A stretch of 17,062 nt of DNA. Origin: a virus. Below the pieces are notes generated by a model. That model did no database searches. It had not been told where the DNA came from and saw nothing but the letters and a program-made list of their open reading frames with translations. Positions within the stretch are counted from its first letter, which is position 1, and every line of letters starts with the position of its first letter. The stretch lies in UHGV virus genome UHGV-0205375. One strand, given 5' to 3'. The position numbers were made by a program, and so were the translations under genes. Shown here piece by piece: positions 8,287 to 15,635 of this stretch.

Positions 8287-9450
8287 TTACACATCATTAG
8301 TACCTTCCTTATTTTTTGACTGGGACAAATTTGGGACCGATGGGTTCAGGATCGAGTCTATTTGCCGTGCGTGTTCGGTAAGGTGATTAGGTGCAAGGTG
8401 AGCATATCGACGAACCATTTCGATAGACTCCCAGCCTCCCATTTCCTGTAACACTGACAACGGGACTCCGGCTTGAACCAGCCAACTTGCCCAGGTGTGT
8501 CTCAAGTCGTGAAATCTGAAATCATCAATACCAGCCCGTCTCAGCGCCGCTTTCCAGGCTGTGTTTGCGTCATACCGCATCTTCCTGACTGTTGGCGCTT
8601 TCGTTCCGTCTGGTTTGGTACAGCTTTCCTTGTACACAAATACCCAACGGTGATGATTCCCGATTTGTTTTTTCAATACGCGACATGCAGTATCATTCAG
8701 CGCAACGCCAATTGCGCGGTTTGATTTACTCTCTTCCGGGTTTATCCATGCCACCCGGCGCTGCATATCTATTTGTTGCCATTCAAGGTTGATGATGTTC
8801 GAGCGTCTTAGGCCTGTTGCCAGTGCAAATTCAACAACAGACTTTAATGGCTCCGGACATTCATCAATCAGCCTTTGTGCTTCATGGGGCTCCAGCCAGC
8901 GGATCCGTTTATTCTTTGGTTGGGGCACTTTAATAATTGGTGCCTTATCCAGCATTTTCCATTCACGCTCTGCGGCTCTTAGTAGGGCCTTTATAAATGA
9001 AAGATGCGTAGCCTTCGTTGCAACGGACGCTGGTTTTGGCGTGTATTCTGGAACAGGTTTCCCTTTTTTTCTGCATGCTTCTGCCCTGAGTTTCCAGTTT
9101 TCCTCATGACGCCGGTTCGTCATTTTCTGCATTGCTGAATAAATTTTTGATTCAGTAATGTCTCTTAGTTGCATTCCTGCGAAATGTTGAAGCCAGAATC
9201 CGATCCGGCTTTTGTCATCGTCCAGTGATTTTTTATGTGCTTTCTCTTCAAGCCACCTGACACACGCTTCCTCGAACGTTATATCAGGTATTTCACCAAG
9301 TTTGCTGACCCGCCATGCTTCAGCCTTTAGCTTGTCATGGAGTTCTGTCGCCTGCCTTTTGTCCTTTGTTCCAAGAGACTGTTTAAATCTTTTACCGTTC
9401 GGCAATGTGAAACTGGCGTACCATATTTCACCTCTGCGGAAGAGTGACAT
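8287..9450 (-). CDS. int: Tyrosine integrase, lambdoid/P22-like
   Basis: 387 aa with C-terminal catalytic region [16 protein letters not shown]...MVRRYAHL (H-x-x-R and Tyr). The 3' end abuts the tRNA-Thr fragment; P22-type integrases are known to use thrW. Confidence 0.9.
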
Positions 9451-11888: not shown

Positions 11889-12251
11889 TTAACGACCTGC
11901 TGCGCGGAGTTTTCCGTCAGGTTCACCGGCAAGAGTCAGTAACTGTCCCTGGTCTTCCTGCAGAATAGTCAGGCGACCACCGCGATTGACATACATCGGC
12001 GTTTCGGTGGTGTCTTCTTCGGAAATTTTCCCGCGGTTAGTCGGGCGAACATATGAGAGTTTGTGTTTGATTTTCACTCGGTTCTCATCAAACGGTTCGA
12101 TTTCCAGGTTGAGCGAGACCTTACCTTTGGTTTTCGTGTTCATCACACCGGAAGCGACTTCACTGAGAACTGCGCCGAATTTGGTTTCAAATACGCCGCC
12201 GTCCAGCTCCCCGATAAATGCCTGCACATCAGTACTGCGTTCGCTAGCCAT
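11889..12251 (-). CDS. Hypothetical early protein, YfdP-like by size and synteny (120 aa)
   Basis: Start at MASERSTDVQAF... (ATG at 12249-12251). The longer 226-aa track ORF extends through GC-rich structured non-coding sequence with an Arg-rich nonsense translation. Confidence 0.55.
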   Translation of the reverse strand: MASERSTDVQAFIGELDGGVFETKFGAVLSEVASGVMNTKTKGKVSLNLEIEPFDENRVKIKHKLSYVRPTNRGKISEEDTTETPMYVNRGGRLTILQEDQGQLLTLAGEPDGKLRAAGR

Positions 12252-12387
12252 TTTGCTGCTCCTCATCATATCGACCCTGCAAGGTCGGTTAGTTTCTCCA
12301 CAAAACAGAGAAGAACACCTGCGGTGACTGCCGCCCGGATGGATTGGGTTATGAGCCCGTCGTCCGGTGATGCTCTTCTCTGTTTTG

Positions 12388-12433
12388 TAAAAAGGACGGT
12401 ACCAGCCGGAAGCAAGGGTACAAGCTGGTACCG
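12388..12433 (-). terminator. Putative intrinsic terminator for leftward (minus-strand) transcription
   Basis: 10-bp perfect GC-rich inverted repeat CGGTACCAGC (12397-12406) / GCTGGTACCG (12424-12433) with a 17-nt loop. On the minus strand it is followed by TCCTTTTTAC. The large loop makes it weaker than a canonical terminator. Confidence 0.35.
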
Positions 12434-12719
12434 CCAAGACTACACACAGCATAAAGTTGTGGTGCCGGGTGCCTCCCGGTGCCTGGCGAAGGTTGCACAC
12501 CAGGCGGGTGGGTATCCACAGAAGGTCGACTGTCAGCCTCAACCTTAACCCGCGTGCGCTGAGCCGCATTCACCACAACGCTAAGGATTCTCTCTGGTTG
12601 AAAATACTTAGCTGTTATGTGCCTGCTTTTAGCCACATCAGGCGAGGTGGACCTAGTTATTCCCCAACAACAAGGATTCGGTTAATCTGGTTATCCCCAA
12701 CAACGCAAAAGGAAAAGAA

Positions 12720-13154
12720 ATGTCCGGTAATATCTATACGCTGTACAAATCCCACTGTGAAAATGTTGGAAAGTATCGGGGCATTGAAATCAGTGGGGTA
12801 GTGTCATCAGTCGAAATAAGCAAAGTTGAATCAAGGGCAACATTACTTACTCTTTTGGACCTTGTCTTACATGAGCACCGGAAGAAATTCGGCACTCCCT
12901 ATAATCAGTTGAATGGGAAAAAGGCTCTGGTTCACCTTATTCTGATGAAGCATCACTGGATGCCAAAACAGATTAATGAGATGAAATTTGATGAACTTCT
13001 TCTTTCAATTCAGGATGAACTCACACTTGATAAAATAAGCGTAACCGCCCAGAAATTTTTAGATTATCGAGACTGGAGATCACAAATTCATCACTTTGAT
13101 GATTTTGACGAAAATGAATGGGATCCTAATTTGTCTGCACAATATCTAAAGTAA
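12720..13154 (+). CDS. Hypothetical protein (144 aa), orphan gene oriented against the leftward early operon
   Basis: ATG at 12720 with AAGGA 6 nt upstream. Preceded by two direct repeats GTTAT(T)CCCCAACAAC (12656-12671, 12690-12704). The 3' end overlaps the convergent 68-aa gene by 29 bp. No recognisable family. Confidence 0.55.
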   Translation: MSGNIYTLYKSHCENVGKYRGIEISGVVSSVEISKVESRATLLTLLDLVLHEHRKKFGTPYNQLNGKKALVHLILMKHHWMPKQINEMKFDELLLSIQDELTLDKISVTAQKFLDYRDWRSQIHHFDDFDENEWDPNLSAQYLK

Positions 13155-13332
13155 CATCCTGTGATAAAACCGTGATTTCCTGATCCAGTTTTTTTAAGGA
13201 GTCTATTGTTTCCTGTCGATAAGACAGCACTTCACGAAGCTGGTTTATAGCTGCCAGCTTCTTTGTCATCCACTCATAAATTTCCTCATCTGTGTAGCCA
13301 GGCGCGACGATTTTGGGTTCTGTTTTGTGCAT
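13126..13332 (-). CDS. Hypothetical protein (68 aa), first gene downstream of the putative pL
   Basis: Start taken at the ATG at 13330-13332, preceded by GAGGAGA 7 nt upstream; the track's TTG start at 13347 lies inside that RBS. No Arg-rich N-terminus, so not obviously an N-type antiterminator. Confidence 0.5.
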   Translation of the reverse strand: MHKTEPKIVAPGYTDEEIYEWMTKKLAAINQLREVLSYRQETIDSLKKLDQEITVLSQDVTLDIVQTN

Positions 13333-13496
13333 TTCACATCTCCTCAAGTTATCAGTTACTTGTTGATGGGGACCAGATTGTTAAAGAGCTAAGCGTCCTG
13401 TAGGGCGCTTTTTTGTTGCTAACGAATCATCCTGGACTTCATATGCCCCAGGCGGCTACTTCGTGGGCGTCCTGCCTGTTCGTTGTCGGTAAAATG

Positions 13497-13538
13497 ATAT
13501 TGCTACTTAAAGTTGCAAAAATCAACTACAAAAAGTAG
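13497..13538 (-). promoter_or_regulatory. Putative OL/pL: two 13-bp operator sites (CTAC-N5-GTAG type) interleaved with -35 TTGATT and -10 CAATAT on the minus strand
   Basis: Minus-strand reading is CTACTTTTTGTAG - TTGATT - 17-bp spacer containing CAACTTTAAGTAG - CAATAT. Same architecture and 23-bp operator spacing as the OR/pR region at 15303-15344. Confidence 0.5.
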
Positions 13539-14559: not shown

Positions 14560-15300
14560 CTATAACCGATTGTATTTTATTGACTCATGAATCAACGCCT
14601 TGCCCATTACATAAAGCTGATCCTGCGATTTTTCATCGATGTACCATTTCTCATAGGCAGGGTTATCCGAAAGAACGGCTAGCTTGTCACCTTGCATTTG
14701 AAGACGTTTAACATGAAAAGTCTTACCGTAAACGAAAGAGTAAATTCCATCAGTCTGGAAGTGACGAACAGAAATGTCGACAAACAGTCGATCTCCGGAA
14801 ACGAGAGTAGGGGACATACTATCGCCATTTACAGTCATAACCTTAATATCATCCTGAGAACGGTTACCGAAAAGAGAACGGGCATGTTCTGTTGTGAACT
14901 CAATGGCGTAGAGCACATCAACATAGTCTGAAAGCATATAGGTTCCAGGTCCTGCGCTAACGCTAAGATCTAAAACTTCTATCCTGTATACGTCGGGTTT
15001 AGTTGGATTGGGGATGCTTGCCATTTCCTTACATCCTTCTCTCTCGCCAACACCATATTCTAAATATGAAGCCGATACCCCCAGAGCCAACGCAAGTTTA
15101 TTCATGACAGAGGCACGAGGCTTCGCTGCGCCGATTGTGTATCGCCGCGCCATTTCATATGTAACGCCAACAAGACTTTTGAGTTGGGTGACAGAAATTC
15201 CCTTGTTTGTCATTAACTCGTTTAGTCTCTTGGCGAAATCTGGATACTTCTGTTCTTCTACCATAGGTAGAAGATTACTCACATCACATACGCTCGTCAT
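14560..15300 (-). CDS. cI: CI-type prophage repressor (HTH plus LexA/S24 peptidase domain)
   Basis: HTH region ISVTQLKSLVGVTYEMARRY and an S24 autoprotease domain with GDSMSPTL (Ser) and HVKRL (Lys). The track start at 15321 would place the operators inside the CDS; start set to the ATG at 15298-15300 (possible leaderless mRNA), with the ATG at 15262-15264 as an alternative. Confidence 0.85.
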   Translation of the reverse strand: MTSVCDVSNLLPMVEEQKYPDFAKRLNELMTNKGISVTQLKSLVGVTYEMARRYTIGAAKPRASVMNKLALALGVSASYLEYGVGEREGCKEMASIPNPTKPDVYRIEVLDLSVSAGPGTYMLSDYVDVLYAIEFTTEHARSLFGNRSQDDIKVMTVNGDSMSPTLVSGDRLFVDISVRHFQTDGIYSFVYGKTFHVKRLQMQGDKLAVLSDNPAYEKWYIDEKSQDQLYVMGKALIHESIKYNRL

Positions 15301-15302
15301 TT

Positions 15303-15344
15303 CTATTTTAAGTAGTTGCAATTCGCTACTTTAAGTAGCATTAT
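15303..15344. promoter_or_regulatory. Putative OR with divergent promoters: operators CTATTTTAAGTAG (15303-15315) and CTACTTTAAGTAG (15326-15338); pR -35 TTGCAA (15316-15321) and -10 CATTAT (15339-15344)
   Basis: Two near-palindromic 13-bp sites spaced 23 bp centre to centre between divergent cI and cro. The pR spacer is 17 bp, and the cro AGGAG RBS follows at 15361-15365. Confidence 0.55.
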
Positions 15345-15371: not shown

Positions 15372-15635
15372 ATGTCATCTCAAAACTACACCGAGAAAGC
15401 AGTAAAGGCTGCGGGAAAGTCTTTATCTGAAGTAGCTCGTCGCTTTGGTTTTAAATCTACTCAATCTGTCGCTAATTGGGTAATTAACAATCAAGTCCCG
15501 TCGGAACGAGTTTTACAACTTTGTGAGCTGGGGAACTGGTCCGTAACCCCCCATGAGCTGCGTCCTGATATTTATCCAAATCCAAATGATGGATTACCAG
15601 AGTGCTATTCAAAAGTTAGCGGTTCAGTTGCGTAA
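15372..15635 (+). CDS. Cro-like HTH regulator (YdaS-like)
   Basis: 87 aa, divergent from cI, AGGAG 6 nt upstream. The segment STQSVANWVINNQVPSERVLQLCELGNWSVTPHELRPDIY resembles YdaS/Cro-type proteins as recalled. Confidence 0.7.
   Translation: MSSQNYTEKAVKAAGKSLSEVARRFGFKSTQSVANWVINNQVPSERVLQLCELGNWSVTPHELRPDIYPNPNDGLPECYSKVSGSVA

Follow-up and report, generated by a model that had tools for sequence, protein, structure and literature searches.

The virus genome UHGV-0205375, whose 17,062 nucleotides are referred to here as the window, is a lambdoid prophage of the SfIV/SfV/mEp460 kind. Its leftward genes, all on the minus strand, run from int (8287-9450) via xis, yfdT, yfdS, yfdR and yfdQ to yfdP (11889-12251), which was assigned from the RefSeq annotation of identical DNA and a PHROG 204 match and whose ATG at 12251 is preceded by the Shine-Dalgarno sequence GAGGAG (12264-12259). 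On the other side of the region considered here, a divergent gene of the ECs1072 family occupies 12720-13154 on the plus strand, and further to the right follow the S24/HTH repressor gene (14560-15321, minus strand) and a cro-like gene (at 15372, plus strand). A first-pass annotation had singled out the interval between yfdP and the ECs1072-family gene (12252-12719) as structured noncoding DNA within the leftward early operon, containing either an RNA that ends at an intrinsic terminator or a cis-acting termination/antitermination element. As set out below, the interval encodes a prophage RNA of an established family, which scores below the family threshold, has been mis-annotated and is unusual in its early-operon position. 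We regard it as probable that this noncoding RNA gene yields an Hfq-type prophage small RNA (sRNA) from leftward early transcription, with a terminator that shields the genes from yfdP to int.

A repeat scan recovered all inverted repeats that had been reported for the interval. The 15-bp perfect inverted repeat extends to 25-nt arms (12300-12324 with 12364-12388) that are 84% complementary, and the 10-bp perfect inverted repeat (12397-12406 with 12424-12433) is followed by UCCUUUUUAC on the minus strand. The scan also revealed a perfect 9-bp repeat, hitherto missed, that pairs 12456-12464 with 12571-12579; it forms the closing helix of the RNA and encloses the short 'GC hairpins' noted at 12461-12510, which correspond to helices P5 and P4 described below. 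The interval is indeed GC-rich (0.53-0.585 compared to 0.35-0.45 to its right), and the strong structure suspected from the repeats was borne out by folding: the minus strand of 12380-12615 reaches -99.8 kcal/mol (z = -4.97; none of 200 shuffled sequences folded as well), with a centroid nearly identical to the minimum-energy structure. Since the plus strand of the same segment has a z-score of only -2.24, the RNA is assigned to the minus strand. The adjoining minus-strand segment 12252-12440 also folds far better than expected (z = -6.09).

Comparison of homologous loci defines one conserved RNA module on the minus strand, reading 5′ to 3′ from 12650 to 12262. Its upstream limit at ~12650 is set by homologous loci and its downstream limit at ~12262 by the point at which the sequence diverges from that of the e14 prophage of E. 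coli K-12. The 5′ boundary is formed by a small hairpin, CCACC..GUGG (12633-12650), followed by GCAGGCACAUAAC (12626-12614); from here onward, the sequence is conserved in loci whose upstream DNA is unrelated and carries at least eight different divergent genes, and K-12 e14 has the same boundary. Next comes a predicted 5′ hairpin, SL0 (12580-12612), that adjoins the closing helix. SL0 is a short version of the 'H' hairpin typical of the family: alignment matches it to the H hairpins of related arrays, and covariation is seen in its stem, while a different perfect hairpin takes its place in Cronobacter phiES15. The heart of the module is a 124-nt multi-helix core with a pseudoknot (12456-12579), which is closed by P1 (12579-12571 with 12464-12456) and contains P2 (12567-12552), P3 (12546-12522), P4 (12504-12482) and P5 (12479-12465; CCGGGAGGCACCCGG).

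A custom model gives this core a score of 104 bits. Scanning viral contigs with a core motif returned 120 loci with 72 distinct sequences, and scanning one genome per species with the P5 motif added 106 further cores from Escherichia, Salmonella, Klebsiella, Enterobacter, Citrobacter, Kosakonia, Pantoea, Erwinia, Rahnella and other hosts. The check for covariation that the first-pass annotation had proposed shows that compensatory changes preserve the helices of the minus-strand structure in these relatives. In an alignment of 13 distinct variants, 12 of 24 pairs have changed on both sides (3.2 +/- 1.4 in shuffled and 2-3 in slid controls). A larger alignment of 102 distinct sequences from Enterobacterales, fitted to the model and with P5 fixed by the search pattern, contains 334 double-change cells, compared to 78 +/- 9 after shuffling and 23-48 in slid controls. 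The signal is significant for P1, P2, P4, the pseudoknot and the H stem; because P5 hardly varies in these sets, covariation is no test of this helix. P1 alone occurs as GUUGUGGUG/CACCACAAC, GUUGCGGUG/CACCGCAAC, GUUGUGAUG/CAUCACAAC and AUUGUGGUG/CACCACAAU.

The pseudoknot joins the segment directly 3′ of P2 to the loop of P4, with AAGGUUG (12546-12540) pairing with CAACCUU (12495-12489; overall 12489-12546). Across the family, this helix is built from dozens of different sequences, and the upstream segment forms 5.76 Watson-Crick pairs with its own loop compared to 4.17 +/- 0.10 with swapped loops; in Cronobacter phiES15, for instance, AAGGCUG/CAGCCUU constitutes a compensatory change. The structure line of the Rfam STnc100 model, as printed by cmscan, is drawn without a pseudoknot, and the STnc100 consensus was derived with RNAalifold, which predicts no pseudoknots (Zhu et al.).

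Downstream of the core lies a single-stranded 20-nt linker, UUUAUGCUGUGUGUAGUCUU (12436-12455), a candidate seed or Hfq-contact segment. Its form UUGCUGUGUG(U/A)AGUCUU is kept in E. coli, Salmonella ST64B and Cronobacter phiES15 despite differing terminators, while some variants have exchanged the linker for other sequences; the probe that detected Hfq-bound EcOnc27 covers the equivalent segment of canonical STnc100. The linker leads into an intrinsic terminator (12387-12435) with a 12-13-bp stem (12435-12395) and a U-tract (12393-12389), whose hairpin folds with -23 kcal/mol. In E. coli, ST64B and phiES15, the conserved core and linker are followed at the same position by GC hairpins and U-runs that are unrelated to each other, which argues that selection has acted on termination rather than on sequence. 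Weak matches to DicF and the hairpin ribozyme (Rfam in E-value mode) could be discarded as reflecting only the terminator hairpin and chance.

Behind the terminator, the module continues with two further hairpins. The longer one (12300-12388) is the 15-bp inverted repeat of the first-pass annotation, which is present as reported and turns out to be the family-typical H hairpin located after the terminator. Seven of its 12 stem pairs covary, and it is homologous to hairpins found directly 5′ of cores in related loci, including tRNA-linked arrays. Its apical motif GGGCUCAUAACCC (12358-12346) resembles a tRNA T-arm, and in related arrays the apical part can be a perfect T-arm, GGGUUCGAAUCCC. The element would be of tRNA-like ancestry and probably marks or protects an RNA end. 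The sequence GUUUUGUGGAGAAAC (12306-12292) that follows resembles the core start GUUGUGGUGAAUGC and may be what is left of another unit. A small predicted hairpin, CCGACCUUGCAGGGUCGA (12271-12288), forms the final part of the conserved module. Both post-terminator hairpins are kept in K-12 e14, where the next gene is xisE instead of yfdP, and are therefore part of the RNA module.

At curated gathering thresholds, Rfam reports nothing in the whole window. In E-value mode, however, 12609-12386 of the minus strand aligns with positions 1-206 of the STnc100 model (RF02076) at 43.4 bits (E = 4.3e-8), compared to a gathering cut-off of 47, so that the covariance-model search advised by the first-pass annotation gives a match over the whole model, albeit below the gathering score. 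The identical core with other flanks in prophage L106 scores 47.8 bits, i.e. above the cut-off, and 207.7 bits are reached by the canonical copy in phage 933W, which lies downstream of stx2B. Aligned with the 933W copy and 11 others, the window shows the closing helix around a multi-hairpin core, GGUGAAU and CACCGGGAGGCACCCGGCACCA, as well as the 3′ single-stranded linker and Rho-independent terminator that are features of STnc100. STnc100 is a multicopy prophage RNA with 11 copies in EDL933, one of which was confirmed by northern blotting. Its Stx2-phage copy is EcOnc27, which crosslinks to Hfq and has a length of ~235/247 nt, the 247-nt form being destabilized without Hfq. A 2026 preprint relates STnc100 to PasD, an sRNA of enteropathogenic E. 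coli for which RIL-seq recovered chimeras with many mRNAs. Among these STnc100-type RNAs, a discrete transcript associated with Hfq is known for EcOnc27 and PasD only. As a side observation, the rightward early region of Salmonella phage ST64B (L003:5232-5308, plus strand) contains a match to isrK RNA at 64.3 bits, above its cut-off.

The 3′ part of the locus leads to a second, experimentally described relative. Positions 12252-12437 are found at 95-97% identity in mEp460, cdtI, Stx2a and Stx2c phages, while the DNA further upstream is not shared; in mEp460, BLAST homology stops at 12437, and alignment reveals the same architecture with a different core interior. A prophage of the mEp460 type in E. 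coli K1 RS218 produces sRNA-17, a 193-nt RNA characterized by northern blotting and rapid amplification of cDNA ends (RACE) (Sun et al. 2020, PMC7719688). Its sequence as given in the supplement, GUUGUGGUGAAUGCGCAGGC to GGUACCGCUCUUUU (PMC7719688), maps onto mEp460 as exactly 193 nt from the first base of P1 to the UUUU of the terminator. By homology, the window RNA is thus expected to run from 12579 to ~12390. The idea of the first-pass annotation that the minus strand encodes a structured RNA with an intrinsic terminator close to 12390 is supported by this agreement between the predicted 3′ end and the RACE-mapped one, although the length of the RNA would be ~190 nt, or 225 nt with the 5′ hairpin, rather than the ~250 nt originally suggested.

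Database records present this DNA in a different light. In every listed record the RNA lies under a 'hypothetical protein' or ymfH feature: RefSeq describes 12266-12576 (minus strand) of the window as a 'frameshifted hypothetical protein', and in K-12 MG1655, where the core lies in e14 at 1,201,261-1,201,383 on the minus strand, ymfH is annotated at 1201069-1201380 of NC_000913, with the AUG inside GGUGAAUGCGG as its start codon. CPS-53 had been considered as the site of the K-12 copy and was rejected, as its homology starts only ~20 nt before yfdP and the element is absent there. One might thus regard the interval as a decayed protein-coding gene, given that PGAP marks a frameshifted CDS, that K-12 lists a 103-aa YmfH over the same DNA and that the yfdP frame is open back to 12569. 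This frame, however, is open over anything from 29 to 126 codons upstream of yfdP among close homologues. The mechanical open reading frames (ORFs) of the interval, i.e. the 226-aa upstream extension of the yfdP frame and frames of 95 and 114 aa, returned zero matches when searched against Pfam, and their translations are Arg/Pro/Gly-rich and of low complexity, in keeping with the first-pass verdict that no credible ORF is present. Moreover, substitutions are compensatory across helices instead of codon-periodic, and the same core recurs in tandem arrays and beside tRNAs. Decay of a coding gene is therefore effectively excluded and is by far the least probable of the explanations considered here.

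With regard to transcription, prophage L106 has a promoter of the form TTGACA-18-TACATT just after the repressor terminator, and ~10 nt separate its -10 hexamer from the start of the core. This promoter is flanked by palindromes also flanking the repressor's own promoter; operators and position thus mark it as a pL and the RNA as its first product. In the window, a palindrome, GCTACTTTAAGTAGC, between the repressor and cro genes (15325-15339) recurs partly at 13501-13513, downstream of the repressor block. Judged by their sequence, the two sites are likely the oR and oL operators, and the motif at 13501-13513 places pL near 13500, ~900 nt upstream of the RNA. This motif and the pL-type promoter of L106 make the earlier placement in a leftward early operon plausible. 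We infer that the RNA is expressed from pL in this prophage as well and would be transcribed leftward within the early-left unit. In K-12, this DNA is annotated as ymfH, which is assigned to the operon intE-xisE-ymfH and appears in the e14 'YmfT' co-expression set.

The first ORF after the putative pL (13126-13332, minus strand; two small minus-strand genes lie to its right, before the repressor) encodes 68 aa and is acidic, without a Pfam match, and belongs to PHROG 1744, where no function is assigned. As had been remarked earlier, it is not N-like, and Pfam and PHROG checks of the window ORFs found no N-like arginine-rich protein as the first pL gene. Its 3′ end overlaps that of the ECs1072-family gene by 29 nt (13126-13154), and terminator-like hairpins of the plus strand lie inside and beyond it (13236-13261 and 13391-13410). 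Just after the latter hairpin, the leftward strand contains AGCUCUUUAACAA (13378-13390, minus strand), which agrees with the rrn boxA consensus UGCUCUUUAACAA in 12 of 13 positions, with the putative oL ~110 nt upstream. Of the loci retrieved, 43 contain the 12-mer GCTCTTTAACAA; in the five that were checked, it lies on the strand of the RNA ~0.7-0.9 kb upstream of it. This boxA-like site may serve the leftward operon in Nus-dependent antitermination. The loop of P5, AGGCA, is not a GNRA-like boxB loop.

Taken as an sRNA gene, the locus could work as follows. The transcript would fold into the compact, pseudoknotted five-helix core closed by P1, followed by the 20-nt linker and the intrinsic terminator, and the product would be a stable RNA of ~190 nt (12579 to ~12390) belonging to the STnc100/PasD/sRNA-17 superfamily. 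By analogy to its relatives, it would most likely act in trans as an Hfq-associated regulator of as yet presumptive targets, in which pairing would fall to the exchangeable linker, while the structured core would lend stability or bind protein. In cis, the same terminator would keep leftward transcription out of yfdP-yfdQRST-xis-int, of which yfdP is the first gene behind it, unless polymerase reads through it. That the RNA exists as a discrete species with these ends, binds Hfq and affects yfdP is extrapolated from experiments on homologues. When sRNA-17 was replaced by a resistance cassette, yfdP RNA rose ~95-fold and yfdR RNA increased, too (PMC7719688). The suggestion that a cis element gates the genes from yfdP to int is thus in line with the terminator found at this position and with the effect of removing its homologue, while the antitermination activity proposed alongside it is without support.

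Several observations weigh against this sRNA reading. The rise in yfdP RNA is what terminator removal would do, yet it is confounded by the alternative that transcription from the cassette read through. Promoter scans at two stringencies found no convincing sigma-70 promoter on the minus strand at 12580-12720, and a gene on the opposite strand separates the putative pL from the RNA. A search for linker targets inside the window returned only the linker itself, and a pseudoknotted multi-helix fold is unusual for Hfq sRNAs. Finally, only ~40% of cores are followed by a terminator, with others leading directly into an ORF, a tRNA or another core. When the 106 cores from one genome per species were sorted by a crude classifier, 43 had a terminator within 110 nt (median 47 nt), eight had another core within 60 nt, ten were followed by a Shine-Dalgarno sequence and ORF, and 45 could not be classified. 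Given these mixed contexts, the conserved core is not simply the body of an sRNA.

The arrays in which some cores occur deserve a closer look. Tandem arrays of three to six STnc100-type cores, with spacers of 10-22 nt, are found in Pantoea and Superficieibacter (L171:949-1989, minus strand; L206:3236-3601, plus strand; L197; L170). The Pantoea trimers, too, have such spacers and are closed by one linker and terminator, as seen in the three-core runs of the two Pantoea loci inspected (L171 and L206). In other loci, cores lie 4-9 nt from tRNA genes or between them: L088:4263-4809 (minus strand), L064:1102-2152 (plus strand) and L211:4064-4824 (plus strand) interleave cores and T-arm hairpins with genuine tRNA genes (Asn, Tyr, Thr, Ser and Met) a few nucleotides apart, and the core 3′ end CCCGGCACCA is also the 3′ end of the neighbouring tRNAs. 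In the window, an ARAGORN scan calls no tRNA gene, and only T-arm-like and 3′-end-like motifs are present. We thus see the core as an independent module that probably descends from a tRNA operon.

These contexts could mean that the core descends from a tRNA-like element and acts mainly in cis as a processing module, dependent on RNase P, RNase E, RNase III or self-cleavage, whose job is to define RNA ends inside long phage transcripts and of which the sRNA is a by-product or secondary use. The closely spaced tandem cores, the cores abutting tRNA genes with a shared CCCGGCACCA end and the intervening hairpins with T-arm motifs of the GGGUUCGAAUCCC type all fit this idea, as does the 5′ end of sRNA-17, which is the first base of P1, directly after a hairpin and with no promoter in front. 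On the other hand, the window lacks an ARAGORN tRNA call, the CCA sequence is paired inside P1 and no known ribozyme family in Rfam matches. The promoter of L106 puts the transcription start within a few nucleotides of P1, so a primary 5′ end could also lie there, and the RACE method used for sRNA-17 cannot tell primary from processed ends (PMC7719688). On balance, we consider a primary role in processing rather unlikely. The same goes for a broader version, in which the core is an autonomous RNA module of tRNA ancestry that resides at operon heads, in tRNA arrays and in mRNA leaders and serves as a processing signal (of the RNase P type or self-cleaving) or, at pL, as a polymerase-acting substitute for N/nut; this, too, strikes us as a possibility of low probability.

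Less probable still is that the core resembles the put RNAs of phage HK022 and modifies its own RNA polymerase to read through the terminator into yfdP-int, thereby replacing the N protein. Its position would suit such a role, as it precedes all delayed-early genes at the start of the pL operon (in L106 it follows pL directly) and is itself immediately followed by a terminator; likewise, the searches revealed no N-like protein, the pseudoknotted core shows high conservation, and some family members occur in mRNA leaders without a terminator. Yet it has neither sequence nor architecture in common with HK022 put, and the HK022 immunity region yields no match with either Rfam or the custom model. 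Each prophage has a single copy, and the rightward operon contains none up to Q (judged from the window and a 16.8-kb homologous locus reaching Q). Furthermore, homologues accumulate as terminated RNAs, core trimers ending at a terminator do not fit an antiterminator, and pL has a boxA-like site nearby that is separate from the RNA. That the RNA itself antiterminates is thus not supported, and the terminated, Hfq-type sRNA remains our preferred explanation.

The right-hand part of the interval has a different history. Two direct repeats (12656-12671 and 12690-12704, the second possibly starting at 12689) had been counted as part of the same element; they are present, occur nowhere else in the window (chance expectation 0.27) and lie in the 5′ region of the divergent ECs1072-family gene. 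The segment of ~70 bp that contains them is found next to at least five different divergent genes, and other loci that have the same RNA lack it. On account of this independent distribution, it constitutes a separate portable module abutting the divergent gene, which it probably regulates, and not a part of the RNA, so that the interval cannot be regarded as one element. The idea that the repeats are degenerate copies of the 5′ strand of P1 was dismissed as not significant. Between them, GTTAATCTGGTTA (12681-12693, plus strand) contains a GTTA-N7-GTTA direct repeat resembling an ArcA box. DNA upstream of ~12650 is generally mosaic among homologous loci, and the slot directly upstream of the RNA (12650-12720), filled by the ECs1072-family gene in the window, is an accessory-gene hotspot that holds at least eight unrelated genes across prophages, always on the opposite strand.

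Of 5426 complete E. coli genomes, 1913 contain sequence 12389-12612 (1828 at >=80% coverage), which amounts to about a third, and recognition of the RNA corrects its annotation as a protein gene or pseudogene. With a copy present in K-12, the predictions are open to testing in the standard strain. A study on retrons has reported that over-expression of a ymfH clone triggers RcaT, the toxin of retron-Sen2 (bioRxiv 10.1101/2020.06.22.160242), an effect that might be due to the RNA or to an artificial peptide. In prophages of the SfV, mEp460 and ST64B kind, an sRNA and its terminator are placed between pL and the excision and recombination genes (directly so in L106), which bears on the timing of xis/int expression in these N-less phages. 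Lastly, sRNA-17, STnc100/EcOnc27 and PasD, which had been described separately, are joined in one structural superfamily with a covariation-supported pseudoknot.

How does this RNA compare with known systems? RtT RNA stems from tRNA-linked repeats of the tyrT operon that copy a tRNA 3′ end, and it is released from a longer transcript. The core arrays likewise consist of repeated structured units in tRNA operons, but fold and host elements differ and Rfam detects no RtT match in the window. Like putL/putR of HK022, the window RNA lies in cis shortly after an early promoter of a lambdoid phage without N; however, put comprises two stem-loops of ~70 nt and occurs in both early operons, whereas the element described here is a 124-nt, pseudoknotted five-helix structure present in a single copy and followed by a terminator at which homologues stop.

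A further parallel concerns the organization of the operon. In the PR'-6S RNA-tR' arrangement of lambda, the promoter-proximal part of the operon gives rise to a short structured RNA, and the terminator at its end must be overcome for downstream expression; StxS in Stx phages is reportedly a comparable short RNA ending at an operon terminator. As in these cases, the window RNA is short and structured and ends at a terminator ahead of the downstream genes of its operon. Unlike it, 6S and StxS belong to late operons, have no sequence relationship with it and are read through by virtue of Q, compared to which no antiterminator was identified for the window RNA's terminator.

The closest relative by position is sRNA-17, which also lies between a divergent accessory gene and yfdP. 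Its terminator, long hairpin and yfdP leader are ~96% identical to those of the window, and it has the same closing helix (GUUGUGGUG/CACCACAAC) and the same GAAUGCG start. By contrast, its core measures 135 nt instead of 124 nt and has a different sequence variant as its interior, its linker differs, and its reported ArcA-regulated promoter lies in upstream DNA that the window does not share (PMC7719688). With only P1, GAAUGCG and the terminator in common within the 193 nt of sRNA-17, the window RNA is a sister variant and not the same sRNA. The authors of that study found no Rfam relative and did not describe a fold (PMC7719688). The likeness of the window RNA to STnc100/EcOnc27/PasD extends over a full-length model alignment, an identical CACCGGGAGGCACCCGGCACCA, the order of helices, the linker with its terminator and the location in prophages. 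What sets it apart from the canonical STnc100 copies is its place in the genome: these lie in the late region downstream of Q/stx2B and convergent with AsxR, whereas the copy in the window belongs to the early-left operon.

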